Positions 23,204-30,482 of a stretch of 64,000 bases of DNA are shown in pieces. Every line of letters begins with the position of its first letter. The first letter of the stretch is position 1. A program made the position numbers and the translations under genes. Below the pieces are notes generated by a model. It ran no database searches, was not told the DNA's origin, and saw only the letters and a program-made list of their open reading frames with translations. Origin of the DNA: an uncultured Planctomycetales bacterium (GTDB lineage Bacteria; Planctomycetota; UBA1135). Location: the NCBI GenBank assembly GCA_964584805.1, contig CAZPAY010000007.1, forward strand, positions 8,117 to 72,116, in the 5' to 3' direction.

Positions 23204-26200
23204 CTAGGCCCCCGATTCAATTTCGAGATCACTTACAACTTCACGCACACCACGAGCCGCAGGATCGGTCAGATTGTTTTGCACCACAACCTTACGCACA
23301 ACAGGAGTCGCGCCGTCGAAGTCGGTCTTTTCAAAACCACCCTCAGGTAGCTTCTCAAGATCAACGCTCACGACCATCGACTGACCGCGCTTACGCATGG
23401 TCACGCCAAATAGACGCTCACAGTGTGACATCGTGATGCGGTTGTGCGTCACGACCATAAACTGAGTCGTGCCTTTGAAGTCATTCAAGACATCCAAGAA
23501 ACGCTCAACATTGGCATCATCAAGTGCTGCGTCAACCTCATCCAGCAAACAAAACGGGCTCGGGCGAGATTGAAAGACAGCCAACAACAGCGCCAAAGCC
23601 GTCAAGGTGCGTTCGCCACCAGACAGCAAATTGATCGAGCGCAACTCTTTACCCGGAGGGCGCACCGAAATTTCGATGCCCGCATCAAGTGGGTCTTCCC
23701 CTTCGGCGAGCTTCAATTCAGCTTTACCGCCGCGGAACAAGCGCCGGAAGATGTGTTCGAACTGCCCCGTGACCTTGTTGTAGGTCTCTAAGAAGCGGTC
23801 GCGACATTTTGTATCGAGATCAGCAATCGTTTCTTCAAGGCTCAATCGCGAGGTTGTCAAGTCATCGCGCTCGCCAATCAAAAACTGCTCACGCTCTTGG
23901 CGCTCTTCCAGCTCTTTCACGGCATCGAGGTTGACCGAACCAATACGATCAATCTTAGTACGCAATTCGACTAACTCAACACGCATGGCTTCCGGCTCAA
24001 GCCCCTCGGGCACAGGCGCGGTTGGATCAATCCCAAGCGTGCGCGCCAATTCTTCCACCGGCTGATGAAACTCATCAATCACGCCACGCACTAATTCTTC
24101 GCGGCGCATCTGCGCGCGCTGCATCCCGAGTGCCTTTCCTTGACGGTCGCCCATCAACCTTTCAATCACACCTTCATCACCTGATCGACTGCGCCGCTCT
24201 TCTTGGACGGCATCGCTTGCGCGCGACCACTGCGTCTCGGCTTCGCCGCAACGCTCGTCAAGTCCACCACGCCGGTCCAAAAGAGCAGTGCGCTCTTCTC
24301 GCGCCGTGGCAGCTTCAGCGCGCAATGATTCTGCACGAGCAACCAGCTCGCCGATTTCGGTTTCAAGACTTTGGCGTTCGGTAGAGAACCGCTCCGCCTC
24401 TTGGCGGAAATCTGCAATACGCTCTTCTGCATGAGCCGTAGCCTGCATCACGCGCGCATGCTCGCCGCGCGCCTCTTGGAAGCTCTGACTCGCCGACTCA
24501 TAAGAACCCTCGCAGGCAGCCTGCTTGCCGCCGTAACCCTCAAGGCGCTCATTTCGCTCAAGGCGTAAAGCCTCTGCAGCATCTCGAGCGGCCGTGTGCT
24601 GTGCCTCTTCCGTGACGGCCTCATCAAGTGCAACACGCAAGCGATCCGCTTCACCATCAAGTGCCGCCGCCTCTTCCGATGCACGGGCCACCCTATGACG
24701 GACGCCCTGCGCTTGAGCAGAAGTTTGCTCAAATGTCGAGACGGATTCACGCAACACCTTATCCGTTGATGAACGCTGCGTTTGAGCTTCCGTCAAAGCC
24801 GCCGTTGCCGTAGCCTCTAGAGCCTCAACTCGCTCAAGCTCAATTTGAGCCGATTCGTTTTCGCGACCAGCTTGCTCAAGAGCATTACGACGAGCCAAGA
24901 CACCCGTCGCCTCTTCGGCGAGCAGACCCACACGCGCCCAACCGCGACCATGGATTTCGCCATCAGCCGACAAGAACAGAGCCGTGGGACTCTCGCCCGC
25001 AAGAGCTGCAGCACGGGTGCCATGTTCCACGCACCAAATGTTGCCCAAGCGTGCAGACAAGGCCTCGCAACGAGTCGCATCACCGGTGAGATGGCTGCGC
25101 AGCGCAGTTGCCCCCTCTGGCGCATCCATTGCAGGGGTATCTCCCTCAACGGGGAAAAATAAATCAAAGACGCCATCATCTAGATCTTGGCGACGCTGCC
25201 GGCCATCCGCCCAAAGCCCGTGTTGCAAACGACCGAGCAAATTTTCAACCAAGCGATCCCAGGGTGCCGGAACGCGGACGCCATCGAGCAAGAGCCCCGA
25301 AAAGCCTTCTGCGCCAGATTCGAGTAGTTTGCGCACTTTCTCTGGAGTGCCGTGCCCCTCGTCATCTACAGAGGCTAATGCATTGAAACGCGCCTTGGAA
25401 CTAGCGGAAGTCTGCCGCGCCATGCGAGCGGCATCGGTGAATCCCTGCGCCTCGGCGCTGAGTCGCTCAACCTCGGAGACCGCTTGATTGTGCGCGCCTT
25501 GCGCGGATGTGCGTGCCGCCTCAGCATCAGCCAAGGCTTGCTCTGTTTGCTCCGACTCAAGCTGAAGCGGAGTGTGTTCTTCTTTCAAATGCTGGCGACG
25601 GCGGTCGAGTGCCTGCATCGCGCCCTGTGCTTCCGAACGCGCACGCGCAGCCTCGGCCATCAAATTGTTGTGCGTGGTGCGCTCGCCCAAAGCCTCAAGC
25701 ACGCTCTTGCGCAATTCTTCCAACTCACCCATCAAGGCGCGGCGAGCATCGCGCGCAACCGTAAAGGCCTCTTCCGCTTCTTTCAGACCTGCGTCAGCTT
25801 GTTCGCGGCGCGCGCTCAATGCGGCGACCTCTTCACGGACGCCTTCTGCGGATTCTTCACGACGGCCACGCTCGGCAACCATGCTCGTTAAGCGCTGACG
25901 GTCGCGCTCAAGGCGTGATTCCGACTCACTCGCGCGTGTTTCCAAACCGTGGACACGCTCTTCCAAACCGGCAACTTCAGCACGCAAACCGGCCGACTCA
26001 CCGCGGAGCGACTCATAACGCTCGCGCAGAGTCGTTTCTTCCGATTCCAGTTCAGCCAAACGAGCGGCCGCACTTTCACGATCACTACGCAGGGCTTCAA
26101 TTTGTCGATCAAGTGTGGCGGTTTGCCCGCGTAACTCGCGCTCACTGCCCGCGAGCTCACCCGTTTCGAGCAGAGCAGAACGCACCCGCAACTCGCGATA

Positions 26201-26863
26201 GCGATCGCGGAACTCCAAAAAGCGGCGCGCTTTACCCGCTTGGATTTTCAAAGAACGCACCGAGCGAGAAACTTCTTCGAGCACATCTTCGACACGCGAC
26301 AAATCGAGCTCAACACGATTGAGTTTCAAACGAGCTTCATGTTTGCGCGCTTTGTATTTGGATATGCCCGCAGCCTCTTCGAACACGCTGCGGCGCTCGG
26401 CAGGGTTAGCGGCCAATACAGCATCAATCTTGCCCTGAGCCAGCACCATGTAACCACGCACACCCAAGCCAGTGTCCATCAGCAAATCTTTGACATCTTT
26501 GCGACGCACCTTGCGGCCATTAAGCAAAAACTCAGCATCGCCCGTTGAGAAGAGTCGGCGCCCCACCGAAACTTCACCACCTGGCTCAGCAATTTTGCCC
26601 TCTTCGTCGCCAAGAATAATTTCGACCATCGCATAAGGCGCGGCCGTGCGACCCTCAGCGCCCTTAAAAATCACATCTTCCATCGCGTCGGCGCGCAGAG
26701 CTTTTGAAGAGCGCTCGCCCATCACCCACATCAGGGCATCGACAACATTGGATTTGCCGCAGCCATTGGGGCCCACAACCCCTGTGAGCCCGCGGTCAAC
26801 GGGGATAACGGTACGGTCGGCGAACGACTTAAAACCTTCGAGTTCGATGCGTTTAAGAAACAT
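23204..26863 (-). CDS. smc: Chromosome segregation protein SMC
   Basis: GFKSFAD, GPNGCGKSN, long coiled coils around a hinge, LSGGE, LDEVDAALD, VTH. Confidence 0.97.
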   Translation of the reverse strand: MFLKRIELEGFKSFADRTVIPVDRGLTGVVGPNGCGKSNVVDALMWVMGERSSKALRADAMEDVIFKGAEGRTAAPYAMVEIILGDEEGKIAEPGGEVSVGRRLFSTGDAEFLLNGRKVRRKDVKDLLMDTGLGVRGYMVLAQGKIDAVLAANPAERRSVFEEAAGISKYKARKHEARLKLNRVELDLSRVEDVLEEVSRSVRSLKIQAGKARRFLEFRDRYRELRVRSALLETGELAGSERELRGQTATLDRQIEALRSDRESAAARLAELESEETTLRERYESLRGESAGLRAEVAGLEERVHGLETRASESESRLERDRQRLTSMVAERGRREESAEGVREEVAALSARREQADAGLKEAEEAFTVARDARRALMGELEELRKSVLEALGERTTHNNLMAEAARARSEAQGAMQALDRRRQHLKEEHTPLQLESEQTEQALADAEAARTSAQGAHNQAVSEVERLSAEAQGFTDAARMARQTSASSKARFNALASVDDEGHGTPEKVRKLLESGAEGFSGLLLDGVRVPAPWDRLVENLLGRLQHGLWADGRQRRQDLDDGVFDLFFPVEGDTPAMDAPEGATALRSHLTGDATRCEALSARLGNIWCVEHGTRAAALAGESPTALFLSADGEIHGRGWARVGLLAEEATGVLARRNALEQAGRENESAQIELERVEALEATATAALTEAQTQRSSTDKVLRESVSTFEQTSAQAQGVRHRVARASEEAAALDGEADRLRVALDEAVTEEAQHTAARDAAEALRLERNERLEGYGGKQAACEGSYESASQSFQEARGEHARVMQATAHAEERIADFRQEAERFSTERQSLETEIGELVARAESLRAEAATAREERTALLDRRGGLDERCGEAETQWSRASDAVQEERRSRSGDEGVIERLMGDRQGKALGMQRAQMRREELVRGVIDEFHQPVEELARTLGIDPTAPVPEGLEPEAMRVELVELRTKIDRIGSVNLDAVKELEERQEREQFLIGERDDLTTSRLSLEETIADLDTKCRDRFLETYNKVTGQFEHIFRRLFRGGKAELKLAEGEDPLDAGIEISVRPPGKELRSINLLSGGERTLTALALLLAVFQSRPSPFCLLDEVDAALDDANVERFLDVLNDFKGTTQFMVVTHNRITMSHCERLFGVTMRKRGQSMVVSVDLEKLPEGGFEKTDFDGATPVVRKVVVQNNLTDPAARGVREVVSDLEIESGA

Positions 26864-26877
26864 GTTTGGGGGCGAGG

Positions 26878-28584
26878 TTAAGAATCGGCGCGCCGCGATT
26901 GAGGGAGGCAGCGGGCGAGTGTGTCGCTAGACATAGAGTGCGCCGGCGCAGCAGCAAATTCCAGCCACGGAGTGACATCAAAATCGGCAACGGTCGGCAC
27001 AGCGGAGGAAGAATCGAGTCGCCAGCCACAAGAATAGCTAGAACAACCCGGCAAAGCGTCAGCCTCAGCAAGGCGAACACCGGTCGCCTCAGAGTGAGGC
27101 GGGTAAGCATGCTCAGGAATCAGCCCGACCTCGCGCGCAGCCCGGTCAAACATTGAGCGGATGTTGAGCACAAAGCGACGGCCGCGATCAGCATTAACGG
27201 GCGTATCCGGACGCAACTGATGCCAAGCCTCAGTAAGCCCGGCCGGCAGCAAACAAACCGTCGCACGAGGGCCGTGGCCTGCGCGCTCCGCCAATCGATG
27301 GACAGCGCCCGCCGCCAAAGTTGCCGTCTCAAAGAGCGCATCGCGGAAGGCATTATCTGCCCACGCGCCCGCTTGAATCGCCAGTTGAGCAAGATTGATA
27401 ACCGCAAAGCCATCGAGCTGTCGGTGCGCCAAAGTCGAGGCGGATGGCATCTTAGCCGGTGGTTGCCAAGTTAAAACCGTGTGATTGAGGGCGGCCAACT
27501 TTTGAGCAAATTGAGGTTCAGTCAGCTCAAGGCCAGAAAACGCCGCTGCACTCATGCGATGCATGCGCCCAGACTTGGCCCAATCAAGCGCCAGTTGCGG
27601 GTCAGTGGTCGCCAAACGAAGCCGGCTCGTTGAGTCGGTCAGCCAATCAGGAGCCGTACGCGAAAGCTCACTCGCTTGAGATTCAGGATCACCTTGGTTC
27701 CGCTGACCAGGCCAGAAAACTTGAACCTCGGCAGCTTTTTGCCTAGCAGCAGAAACACGACGCCAGAAAGCTAGCTCACTCTCTTCTGGCTCAGGATGCA
27801 AACGCACGCGTGCCGCTCGCATCCAGTCATTGAGACGCGGAAGTGCGAACGCTCCCGCCGCCAAAGCTTCAGATTCAGGCGGAGTCAAAATCTCATCAAG
27901 CGCAAAACGCGCCAAGATTTCACCGCCCAACATGGGGCGCGTATCGGTGCCTTCCGGGCTCATTGCTGGCATCGGGCCGCCTGCGCCCTCAAGAGGCAAA
28001 CAGTCGCCACTCAACCATGCGCGCAAATGACGGCGCTCAAGTCCCACGCGCGGATCGCCCATTGGCTCCGCGGGTAAGCCCAAGGCGCGGCACTCATTGT
28101 CGGCGCATGCGGCAACAAAACGAGCCGTCAAATGCAACCAATTGCCGGCGGCGATACGGCGCTCAACTTTGCAAGCCACATCACGAGCCACCCCGCGCTC
28201 AAGGAATCGGTCTCGCACGAGGGCCAAGCCCAAACGCTCGCGGTCCCAAGGCAATGACTCGGGCCGAGCGCCTGCGACGGTGTGCACTCGCAAACGAGAA
28301 ACAGCAAATCGGCGCGCGCGACGGAAAGCGACGAAGGCATCCGCTGCCCGCGCATCAAGCGCACGCAATTCGTATTCAAGTGCGACGGACAAATCGGCGG
28401 TATCGACCATCTCGCGAGAATCCATGGGTGCATTCGCCCACGCCTCGGCGGCCATCAAAGAAGTCGCAACGCCGCTCAAGCCAACACTGGCCAAAGCCAA
28501 TTCAGCGGACTCAGCGAGCTTGAAAGTGTCAAAGCCCTGCTCGAAGCCGTCGCGCTTACGAACCCGAGCCGTCGCTATCGCCAT
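26878..28584 (-). CDS. ATP-cone-containing protein resembling a degenerate class III ribonucleotide reductase (NrdD-like, catalytic motifs missing)
   Basis: N-terminal VRKRDG..QGFD..KL ATP cone; a second cone-like region PWDRERL...VERRI; NrdD-like blocks [11 protein letters not shown]...[34 protein letters not shown]. No RxxGY and no C-terminal CxxC pairs. Confidence 0.65.
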
Positions 28585-29044
28585 AAGGCATCTTGCCCTC
28601 TAGAAAGGGCTTGAGCTCACTGATGAACTGGCCGACATCTTTGAACTCGCGATAAACGGAGGCAAAGCGGACATAAGCCACTTGGTCGAGGCCCTTGAGC
28701 TCGTCCATGACAAGCTGGCCAATGTATTTACTGCCCACCTCATGCTCAAACATCTCTGCCAATTTGCGCTCGATGCGAGAAGTGATTTCTTCAAGCGATT
28801 CAAGCGAAACGGGGCGTTTTTCACATGATTTCAACATGCCTTTTAGAATGCTGCCACGGTCGAACGGCACGCGTGAGCCATCTTTTTTGACGACCCGCAG
28901 AGGCGTTTCTTCCATGCGCTCGTAAGTGGTAAATCGACGCGAGCAATCCATGCATTCGCGGCGACGGCGAATCGAAAAAGCATCAGCCGCGGCACGAGAA
29001 TCAATGACGCGGTCGTTATCTTGTTTGCAGAAGGGGCAACGCAT
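28556..29044 (-). CDS. nrdR: Transcriptional repressor NrdR
   Basis: MRCPFC...VIDSR...[21 protein letters not shown] cone [16 protein letters not shown]. Start trimmed to MRCPFC. Confidence 0.97.
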
Positions 29045-29084
29045 GGCAGTAATACGGGGAGGTCTACCCCGTGAACCCGCAAAA

Positions 29085-29104
29085 TACCACAATACCTAGT
29101 GGTA
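29085..29104. promoter_or_regulatory. NrdR-box-like palindrome upstream of nrdR
   Basis: TACCAC-AATACCTA-GTGGTA. The core ccaCAAtAccTAGtgg (29087-29102) matches the NrdR-box consensus acaCwAtATaTwGtgt at 12 of 16 positions, about 40 bp from the nrdR start. Confidence 0.68.
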
Positions 29105-29144
29105 AGGCAAGAACGAACCGCAAGAACTCGCATTGCGACTTCCT

Positions 29145-30482
29145 TCATTTTCCAAGGCAAAAGCCGGAAAACAGGCGGTCAAGTAGGTCTTCGGGGGTTA
29201 ACTCCCCAACCAGCGCACCGATTGCCGACAAGGAAGCCCTTAATTCTTCCGCGATAAGCTCCTGAGGGCCTTGGTTTTGCTCGAATTCACGAGCGCGTGC
29301 CAAAGCCACAGAGGCCGCGGCTAGAGCTTCTTGATGTCGCTCACCCACCGAAAGCAATGCTTGTCGGGTGCGACTCACGGATTGAAGTAGTTCAGCCGAA
29401 GCCGACTGAAGGTCATCGACCGACCAGACAACTTTGATGCCTGACGCTAATGAGGCAAAGACCTCATCGGGGATGGCTCGCGGCAAATCAGTTTTTGCGC
29501 AGTAGACCAATCGGGGAGCCAGAGTTGGAGGCAAGAGCACTTTGGCATCTGCATCAGCAGAATCGACCACACACCACCAAGCGTCCATTTCAGCGAAATC
29601 TTGCTCGGCACGCTTTCGCGCGGCTGCATCTCGCTCATCGACGGCTTCGCCACCGAGGCCGGGGAAATCACACAGTACCCACTCACCCCACGGCGACTCA
29701 AGGCGGTCGCGGGTCGTGCCCGCTTCATCCGTAATCAAGACATTAGCACCGGTCAGTTTTGCGAAAAGCGTCGACTTTCCGGCATTTGGAGTGCCAATCA
29801 GGCCAATGCGCCAAAGACCATCATGCCGCAAGCGTCGCTGCGTCTCTACGCGTTGACTTTGCGCAAGTGCGGCTTCGGCATCACAAAGCAGACCGTCAAT
29901 CTCAGCGGGTTGGACATCTTGAGAGTCACCCTCCTCGAAATCGAGTGCGGCCTCGACTTGAACCAAAGCACTTGTAAGTGCCTCACGCGCCGCCATCAAA
30001 CCCTCAGCCAATCCGCCCGCCAAAACCGACTGAGCCGCCCGTGCCTCATCTGCATTGCGTGAGCCAACCAAACCCAAAACGGCCTCAGCTTGGGTCAGGT
30101 CAAGCTGGCCATTTAAAAAGGCACGGCGCGTGAATTCTCCTGGCTCAGCGAGTCGCACCCCTTGAGTATGAAAATGCTCAAGGAGCAATTCCGTGATAGC
30201 AGGGCTGCCGGGGTAATGCAGCTCAAGTACATCTTCCCCCGTAGCAGAATGAGGTCCTGGGAAGACAAAAACGGCAACCGCTGCCTCGCAGGCTGGAGCA
30301 AATTCAAGCACGCCTTCACGCACCTCTCGTCTGTTTCGCGGTTGCGGGCATTGGGCCGGCAAAAACCCATCGGACTGAGCCAGTAAATCTGGGCCGCTCA
30401 ATCGCAAGACGGCCCGCTCGGCAACCCCCATCGGGGTCGCCGAAGCGATGATGCAATCGCGCCTACTTGCCCTTGGCGTCAT
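29145..30482 (-). CDS. mnmE: tRNA modification GTPase MnmE
   Basis: Motifs RLSGP, SATGEDVLELH, AEPGEFTRRAFLNG, GTPNAGKS, GTTRD, C-terminal FCLGK. Confidence 0.93.
   Translation of the reverse strand: MTPRASRRDCIIASATPMGVAERAVLRLSGPDLLAQSDGFLPAQCPQPRNRREVREGVLEFAPACEAAVAVFVFPGPHSATGEDVLELHYPGSPAITELLLEHFHTQGVRLAEPGEFTRRAFLNGQLDLTQAEAVLGLVGSRNADEARAAQSVLAGGLAEGLMAAREALTSALVQVEAALDFEEGDSQDVQPAEIDGLLCDAEAALAQSQRVETQRRLRHDGLWRIGLIGTPNAGKSTLFAKLTGANVLITDEAGTTRDRLESPWGEWVLCDFPGLGGEAVDERDAAARKRAEQDFAEMDAWWCVVDSADADAKVLLPPTLAPRLVYCAKTDLPRAIPDEVFASLASGIKVVWSVDDLQSASAELLQSVSRTRQALLSVGERHQEALAAASVALARAREFEQNQGPQELIAEELRASLSAIGALVGELTPEDLLDRLFSGFCLGK

Follow-up and report, generated by a model that had tools for sequence, protein, structure and literature searches.

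A planctomycete descendant of the class III ribonucleotide reductase NrdD with tandem ATP cones and without recognisable catalytic hallmarks, encoded beside nrdR

The control of ribonucleotide reductases (RNRs) is usually described in terms of two devices, the repressor NrdR and an ATP cone that forms part of the enzyme. ATP cones contact the nucleotide through a K-R-D-G motif; in P. aeruginosa class I NrdA, an active enzyme with two N-terminal cones, the second cone is non-functional. For class III enzymes (NrdD), the described features are an NxN flap, an HxHD triphosphate motif, the loop with the radical-bearing Cys and a glycyl-radical domain (GRD) with its Gly and Tyr (PMC11226230). The thiyl-radical Cys of the finger loop lies in an MGCR or MCCR motif, and a Cys on strand beta-A is conserved in 92.6% of class III enzymes (PMC9669993). 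Inactive relatives of RNR large subunits have been described in herpesviruses, among them M45 of murine cytomegalovirus (MCMV), which has been termed an 'inactive ribonucleotide reductase'. Here, a 64,000-nucleotide stretch of contig CAZPAY010000007.1 (GenBank assembly GCA_964584805.1), called the window in the following, was analysed. It stems from an uncultured marine planctomycete and contains, between nrdR and smc, a 568-residue open reading frame (ORF). We find that this ORF is an in-place descendant of nrdD and that, as judged from its sequence, all tested catalytic hallmarks of NrdD are lost in it, and we discuss a possible function as a non-catalytic sensor.

The ORF is intact, and between its start at 28584 and the end of nrdR at 28556 the two genes share 29 nt, in agreement with the original prediction, an earlier reading of the window from its letters alone. 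Unlike genuine NrdDs, the protein remains below the NrdD models of Pfam and NCBIfam: PF13597 and TIGR02487 gave no match even at E≤1, the NCBIfam scan yielded zero matches and no other enzyme family was matched in either collection. A zinc ribbon of the TIGR00244 type was likewise not matched in the ORF by Pfam or NCBIfam, whereas the neighbouring NrdR scores 198.5 bits on TIGR00244. Identification by a sequence search of the PDB was abandoned, since the protein alone gave nothing beyond chance and the profile matched only the ATP cone, not the barrel. Homologues were collected in a word-seeded search (E≤0.001, 8000 candidates scored), which led to a family alignment of 23 proteins, termed A1. 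Its members have 545-664 residues and share 39-100% identity; invariant columns number more than 90 at identities of 39-81%. No description of the family was found in the literature searched; databases label its members hypothetical or 'ATP cone domain-containing'.

The relationship to RNRs was assessed at the level of the predicted structure. The AlphaFold2 model of the ORF (predicted local distance difference test, pLDDT, 77.9; predicted template modelling score 0.60) consists of two units of a beta-hairpin plus helices, a low-confidence stretch at residues 175-220 and an alpha/beta barrel. In a Foldseek search of the PDB with this model, RNR catalytic subunits lead with E values of 7e-9 to 1e-5, the best whole-model match being the two-coned P. 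aeruginosa NrdA (5im3, 7e-9), followed among others by NrdD of S. thermophilus (9d3x, 6e-8) and NrdD of T. maritima (4con, root mean square deviation, rmsd, 6.9 over 485 columns). A structure search independent of Foldseek returned RNR alpha subunits of all classes with Z scores of 12.5-18.1. Matches were also obtained with the barrel only, to 6dqx (Z 16.5, rmsd 4.3 over 320 residues) and to T. maritima NrdD (4u3e, Z 15.0, rmsd 4.8 over 346), and glycyl radical enzymes (GREs) matched the ORF model with Z 7.3-12.4. The model thus gives the ORF a ten-stranded alpha/beta barrel of the RNR/GRE fold, and similarity to the NrdD fold beyond the ATP cone, which the original prediction had proposed as a check, was found by both searches. 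As the fold matches all RNR classes, the class is told by sequence and gene position and not by fold alone.

Both point to NrdD. When the family profile was compared with genuine planctomycete NrdDs by HMMER, profile positions 3-260 were matched with E values of 1e-26 to 1e-31, and an alignment of A1 with 12 genuine NrdDs by hhalign reached a probability of 99.65 (E 3.6e-24). With the barrel alone, hhalign gave E 7.5e-4 and paired the conserved blocks in order. The four NrdD-like blocks of the original prediction were recovered in this profile-profile alignment in the sequence it had given; as in NrdD, the first barrel helices are followed by the INL strand, the GLxE block and the PAES-like block. 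N397 of the I-N-L strand is invariant in A1. The genuine planctomycete NrdDs used here are encoded in 12 of 30 fetched loci, are 773-777 residues long, end in a four-Cys site plus RIVGY and score 377-407 bits on the NrdD models (PF13597 407; TIGR02487 377-385). In 29 of the 30 loci nrdR lies directly upstream of the matching gene, and in the thirtieth only 388 bp of sequence precede the gene. In the short family to which the ORF belongs, the gene is always located immediately behind nrdR. The gene order of a closed genome is nrdR, nrdD (800 aa), NrdG2 (above the cut-off with 150 bits), a radical-SAM gene of the AmmeMemoRadiSam type and smc; furthermore, in 4 of the 12 loci that were extended, genuine nrdD is separated from a downstream smc by 2-3 kb. 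The smc gene directly follows the ORF homologue in all three short-family loci among the 30 and in five of six loci of long homologues without GRD. Thus, the order nrdR-ORF-smc is the old nrdR-nrdD-nrdG-...-smc block minus the activase gene, and the adjacency of smc is inherited and predates the change of function. The SMC protein as a partner, a hint given in the original prediction, loses weight accordingly and was dropped as a specific clue, because the nrdR-nrdD-nrdG-radical-SAM-smc order already surrounds genuine nrdD. Since sequence, fold and gene position agree, we conclude that the ORF is an in-place descendant, that is the positional orthologue, of nrdD, derived from a planctomycete NrdD that already had two cones. 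With the class III enzymes compared (P. copri 8p23, S. thermophilus 9d3x, T. maritima 4u3e and the planctomycete proteins of loci L008 and L047) it shares common descent, and with planctomycete NrdD also the N-terminal ATP cone, the second degenerate cone, the RNR-fold barrel and the place after nrdR.

Some details of the planctomycete NrdD loci are worth recording. The 800-aa NrdD of the closed genome (G171; L047:1746-6124) reaches 407 and 385 bits on the NrdD models; its four-Cys site is present, and it ends without a RIVGY-type motif. It is followed by NrdG2 and then by the AmmeMemoRadiSam radical-SAM protein, which has a C-terminal CxxC followed by an R-R-I-G-Y string. In the NrdDs of L027 and L032 no RIVGY was seen; their frames run past the end of the fetched locus.

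The loss of catalytic features was analyzed in a single MAFFT alignment of 163 rows. Feature states were read from this alignment and recounted on distinct rows, with the tree clade as the definition of the family; short-family rows may include the same protein with a different N-terminal trim. All 12 genuine NrdDs have the NxN flap, the HxHD motif, the beta-A Cys, the finger-loop Cys and the GRD motif. Among the 45 rows of the short family, NxN, HxHD and the GRD motif are absent throughout, the finger-loop Cys occurs once and the beta-A Cys in 22 rows. The 105 rows of long forms without GRD show NxN once, HxHD once, the beta-A Cys 11 times, the finger-loop Cys 40 times, where it sits in a GC[RQH]R-like motif, and the GRD motif in no row. 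The INL strand and the GLxEA block persist even in these distant relatives (xN[LIMV] in 85 of 105 rows). In the ORF itself no Cys is present between residue 373 and the INL motif (residues 373-391), the beta-A position is occupied by Arg (aligned columns AARVR) and neither a CxxC pair nor RxxGY was found, which bears out the original prediction on all of its three losses. The C-terminus follows about 65 residues after the PAES-like block. Compared with genuine NrdD about 200 residues are lost, and with the barrel being roughly 190 residues shorter about a third of it is gone. According to the sequence, all tested catalytic hallmarks are therefore lost in the ORF.

The activase is missing as well. 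As already stated in the original prediction, no nrdG is adjacent to the ORF, and in the genome (2.32 Mb, 89% complete) none was detected over the cut-off: TIGR02491 gave no match and TIGR02495 matched only radical-SAM proteins below its cut-off (at most 37.6 bits versus 131). PF13597 has no match in this genome either. A check of the encoded RNRs, suggested in the original prediction, detected a single protein matching PF02867, a class II-type RNR of 855 aa that has no ATP cone.

Loss of these features is not accompanied by decay of the gene. Within its order, full-length members occur in a single taxonomic family, where 44 of 48 genomes other than that of the window have one; the four genomes without a match are 79-90% complete. 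Among the listed family matches no internal stop was found, and several of them are cut by contig ends. In the other families of the order, one (f2) has N-terminal matches only, in 38 of 63 genomes, and another (f3) has none in 64. For 13 pairs with at least 60% identity among 13 orthologues, the ratio of nonsynonymous to synonymous substitutions (dN/dS, NG86) is 0.05-0.32, with dS of 0.9 or more; as dS is near saturation, these ratios are rough. The window ORF and its congener in L059 differ by dN 0.141 and dS 1.48 (omega 0.095). These values argue that the ORF is kept under purifying selection along its length and is not decaying. Both the shared losses and the dN/dS below one, which the original prediction had suggested looking for in homologues, were thus found, and its notion of a repurposed RNR pseudo-enzyme rather than a decayed pseudogene is upheld by descent, losses, distribution and selection. 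One family member, P0023 (664 aa), appears to be a fusion of an NrdR zinc ribbon with the family protein, about 80 NrdR residues being followed by Ser/Thr/Arg-rich low complexity. It was not used as a true fusion because a frameshift across the overlapping nrdR/ORF junction fits better.

The wider distribution was determined with A1 as query. HMMER against 1.84 billion representatives gave 1385 matches at E≤0.001, of which 440 reach E≤1e-10 and 30 reach E≤1e-30; about 15 full-length representatives rank first and are followed by proteins of 540-820 aa that match positions 3-260 and are weak NRDD matches. Among 301 genomes of the phylum, 148 have a match at E≤1e-10. It is full-length only in the window's genome and two others of the same taxonomic family, and the remaining matches cover the first ~260 positions at best, some far fewer, in frames of mostly 650-890 aa. 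The long relatives without GRD (540-820 aa) belong mostly to the Planctomycetota according to cluster labels, genome searches within the phylum and record titles. They resemble the ORF in having one or more ATP cones and a degenerate NrdD barrel without GRD and, in the loci inspected, in the context nrdR-X-smc (L007, L011, L015, L018, L026) or mnmE-nrdR-X-smc (L119, gene at L119:1980-4223), and differ from it in being longer. The order mnmE-nrdR-X-smc is found in genomes such as G346, which consists of 2 contigs. In the ESM Atlas the ORF is placed beside planctomycete clusters of which 87-92% of the members have an ATP cone and 15-61% the NRDD family. In a FastTree phylogeny of the 163 rows with the genuine NrdDs as root, one clade of 46 (support 0.51) makes up the short family and nests deep inside the GRD-less forms, planctomycete NrdDs being the only outgroup. 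PF13597 is absent from all five genomes tested that carry long GRD-less forms (91-95% complete), so that NrdD is replaced by these forms and not accompanied by them. In the family of the ORF, PF13597 is found in 0 of 49 genomes, PF02867 in 49 and PF03477, the ATP-cone model, in 48.

The N-terminal part of the protein was then compared with known ATP cones. The first cone, proposed in the original prediction, is weak in the ORF alone and solid for the family and by fold. PF03477 is matched by 23 of 23 members of A1 at E≤0.1 (best 2.6e-14), with mostly 27-51 bits for the orthologues, and the model of residues 4-96 superimposes on the cone of L. blandensis NrdB (5olk) with Z 13.3 and rmsd 2.0 over 93 residues. 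Of its motif, K10, R11 and D12 are invariant in the 45 family rows, and G13 is missing from one row.

The second unit has H-T-V-A at the positions aligned with K-R-D-G. At the sequence level it was not significant: hhalign within the family paired it with cone 1 in the expected register at E 0.35, and Pfam on the segment alone gave no match at E≤1. Folded alone, residues 97-182 reach a pLDDT of 88.2, and in a structural search of 48,161 chains the best seven were all ATP cones (Z 10.9 to 5.8; next unrelated chain 5.7), headed by NrdR (7p37, 10.9), 5olk (10.0), NrdD 9d3x (9.6) and 9fzf (8.6). Foldseek returned no row at E≤0.001 for this model, and 31 of the first 32 rows listed were ATP-cone proteins. 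On the basis of the model, residues 97-182 are a second, degenerate ATP cone, in line with the second cone-like unit of the original prediction. A homologous unit is present in genuine planctomycete NrdDs, where it matches PF03477 on its own (E 1e-4, 23.2 bits); cone 2 is thus inherited and no novelty of the ORF. The best Foldseek row for cone 2 was 9a6n, an integrative model of a Soj-NrdR complex; its pairing of NrdR with a chromosome-partition ATPase is curious beside the conserved smc neighbour.

What distinguishes the family lies in cone 2 and in the linker behind it. The linker is predicted to be disordered (pLDDT <50) and is yet highly conserved, with the family-specific segment RAWLxGxCLP in place of the NxN flap. 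Column identity within the family is 0.73 for cone 2, 0.73 for the linker (181-220), 0.58 for the barrel and 0.54 for cone 1. Cone 2 of the family has a median net charge of +7; for genuine NrdD this value is -1.5, for the long forms +1. Four residues are specific for the family, H101 (43 of 45 rows), H151 (44), C165 (42) and C195 (42); in genuine NrdDs the corresponding residues are R, R, L and S, and the long GRD-less forms have neither the basic cone 2 nor this set. We regard the four residues as a candidate metal or redox site that would tie the linker to cone 2.

Regulation was considered on the basis of the upstream regions. The 14-mer upstream of nrdR, read by eye, fits the same pattern (12 fixed bases) as an element upstream of nrdJ, the gene for the class II RNR. 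Upstream of nrdJ, two NrdR-box-like 16-mers are separated by a 16-bp spacer (L001:3523-3570, contig 18 of the window's genome), the spacing reported for NrdR operators (10.1101/2024.05.27.596032). Of 46 loci, 34 have a box-like element with at most 3 mismatches in the 150 bp preceding nrdR, as compared to 117 of 2000 random 150-bp pieces, and in short-family loci it lies mostly 37-44 bp from the nrdR start. These elements make it probable that NrdR controls the nrdR-ORF pair, just as it would control an nrdR-nrdD operon, and the boxes at nrdJ suggest that NrdR also controls the genome's only detected RNR, the cone-less class II enzyme. Between the box-like element and the nrdR start codon lies a G/C-rich near-palindrome, GGGGTAGACCTCCCC (window 29056-29070, minus strand). 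Four marine-metagenome DNA runs of one study, possibly including the source itself, contain at least 0.91 of the sampled words from window positions 26700-29200; no RNA dataset containing this region was listed.

Coordinates in the window of the NrdD-derived ORF, its predicted segments and neighbouring features
Feature	Position	Strand	Remarks
NrdD-derived protein without glycyl-radical domain, 568 aa	26878..28584	-	stop codon 26878-26880; frame uninterrupted
ATP cone 1, residues 7-96	28297..28566	-	K-R-D-G motif retained
ATP cone 2 (predicted), residues 97-180	28045..28296	-	degenerate, no K-R-D-G, basic; holds H101, H151, C165
Linker, residues 181-220	27925..28044	-	occupies place of NrdD NxN flap; RAWLxGxCLP motif with C195
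Trimmed RNR/GRE-type alpha/beta barrel (predicted), residues 221-564	26893..27924	-	~340 aa versus ~530 in genuine NrdD
Finger-loop equivalent, residues 373-391, no Cys	27412..27468	-	precedes conserved I-N-L strand
nrdR, 162 aa from ATG at 29044, Zn ribbon and ATP cone	28556..29044	-	last 29 nt overlap ORF
NrdR-box-like 14-mer, 43 bp upstream of nrdR start	29088..29101	-	related elements at similar distance in short-family loci
smc, 15 nt downstream of ORF	23204..26863	-	neighbour by inherited synteny, not functional part

Taken together, the sequence features point most readily to a function of the ORF as a non-catalytic ATP/dATP sensor and regulator in the NrdR circuit, not as a reductase, a proposal for which our belief and our doubt are about evenly balanced. 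By loss of the GRD/Zn tail, the finger-loop Cys, the NxN flap, HxHD and the activase gene, nrdD has most probably become a pseudo-enzyme. Cone 1, its K-R-D-G motif being intact, may still bind ATP or dATP, and binding could alter the oligomeric state or the conformation as in other ATP-cone proteins. The signalling surface would be the most conserved face, composed of the basic cone 2 with the two His and two Cys residues, the linker and the first barrel helices, and this face might pass the signal to a partner in dNTP homeostasis, be it NrdR, the active RNR or DNA. The protein resembles NrdR in having an ATP cone as presumed nucleotide sensor and no catalysis; the genes of both overlap and are probably transcribed together, and the NrdR cone is the closest structural match of cone 2. 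It differs from NrdR by the absence of the DNA-binding zinc ribbon, the possession of two cones and a barrel, and the lack of homology outside the cone. The nearest described concept are the herpesvirus inactive R1 homologues (MCMV M45; Epstein-Barr virus BORF2), in which the RNR alpha fold has also been put to non-catalytic use (7rw6 versus the ORF barrel, Z 15.4); these proteins are, unlike the ORF, viral, of class I origin and without an ATP-cone sensing role, and they act on host proteins.

Several observations weigh against this proposal. Both the binding of nucleotides and any partner are predictions. No segment of the protein is less conserved than cone 1, the proposed sensor, and in the ORF itself this cone matches PF03477 only at E 0.011 with 16.7 bits (second value 20.9 bits) at a cut-off of 25.8. 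Adjacency to nrdR is inherited from the ancestral nrdR-nrdD operon and thus is no independent evidence of a functional tie. The family co-occurs with different RNR sets, some genomes, such as that of the window, having only class II-type matches and six genomes of genus g247 only class-I-type matches, so that no single RNR partner is implied. The motif counts depend on the one MAFFT alignment, and the barrel-only hhalign probability of 25 is of low confidence. Finally, the barrel has 44 invariant columns in A1, and the many polar or aromatic residues among them (E286, Q288, R323, N397, R434, R476) would suit a new enzymatic role as well. A complex prediction for the full ORF protein with NrdR, run without controls, gave no answer (score 0.00 against a mark of 0.32) and speaks neither for nor against binding. 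The protein was also considered as a dedicated partner of the cone-less NrdJ, an idea that was down-weighted because the g247 genomes keep the protein with class-I-type matches only and in many genomes of the family a further cone lies in a frame of the class I type. In other genomes of the family a class I-type match (E about 1e-200) is added in a frame of ~800-860 aa with its own ATP cone.

A new enzymatic role would mean that the trimmed barrel catalyses a non-radical reaction, perhaps on a nucleotide, with the ATP cones as allosteric switch. The invariant barrel columns just mentioned, the purifying selection over the whole length and the persistence of the INL strand and GLxEA block in distant relatives would fit such an enzyme. 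However, the NxN flap and HxHD, the two known elements of NrdD for its nucleotide substrate, are gone in all 45 rows, the barrel is less conserved than cone 2 and linker, and no other enzyme family was matched, so that we consider this role quite unlikely. Retention of RNR activity with the radical supplied by a separate partner is a thought that is kept alive by the finger-loop Cys in the 40 long GRD-less relatives, for which it cannot be dismissed; in the short family, by contrast, that Cys is confined to a single row, the flap and HxHD are missing altogether, the beta-A Cys of the ORF is an Arg and the genome has no activase over the cut-off. For the ORF, judged by these residues, such an activity is close to refuted and has next to no probability left.

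A role at the chromosome, with cone 2 as a nucleic-acid-binding module and the gene acting with smc or apart from NrdR, would account for the basic charge of cone 2 and for smc as the next gene in the short-family and most of the long-form loci, with the same order in L119. This role is very unlikely in our view: the adjacency is older than the change of function, as the genuine nrdD-nrdG loci with downstream smc attest, cone 2 folded alone matches ATP cones best, and no DNA-binding fold was found, the cone 2 segment reaching only Z ~5 with sigma/TFIIB-like helical rows in the whole-model search. That the gene is a functionless nrdD relic in slow decay could be thought of in view of its lost catalytic parts and ~200 residues. 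Frames free of internal stops among the listed matches, presence in nearly all other genomes of the family and in many genera, the low dN/dS at high dS, the more than 90 invariant columns and the gain of the family's own H101, H151, C165 and C195 speak against it and leave this explanation hardly any room. The sensor proposal can also be given a bolder form, which we put forward tentatively and consider unlikely as a whole: the GRD-less, NrdD-derived family would form together with NrdR a second nucleotide-sensing arm, in which cone 1 reads ATP/dATP, cone 2 contributes the His2Cys2 metal or redox site and a basic face, and the protein either serves NrdR as anti- or co-repressor or acts in trans as an allosteric subunit of RNRs without a cone of their own.

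Overall, a complete catalytic subunit has in this lineage been stripped of its catalytic parts, and the domains for sensing have been retained under selection beside nrdR. In the portions of the literature searched, which include PMC9531940, PMC9669993, PMC11226230 and 10.1101/2024.05.27.596032, bacterial NrdD homologues without a glycyl-radical domain are not described; supplements, outside this search, may list some. The phenomenon is larger than the short family, as at least 105 distinct long GRD-less rows were aligned and the genomes tested carry no genuine NrdD. If the protein is a regulator, it would represent a third device for sensing dNTP status, and a natural experiment in recycling an oxygen-sensitive enzyme as a lineage moves into oxic water. 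Should the second sensing arm with NrdR prove true, the protein would be the first regulatory pseudo-enzyme derived from an RNR alpha subunit in bacteria.

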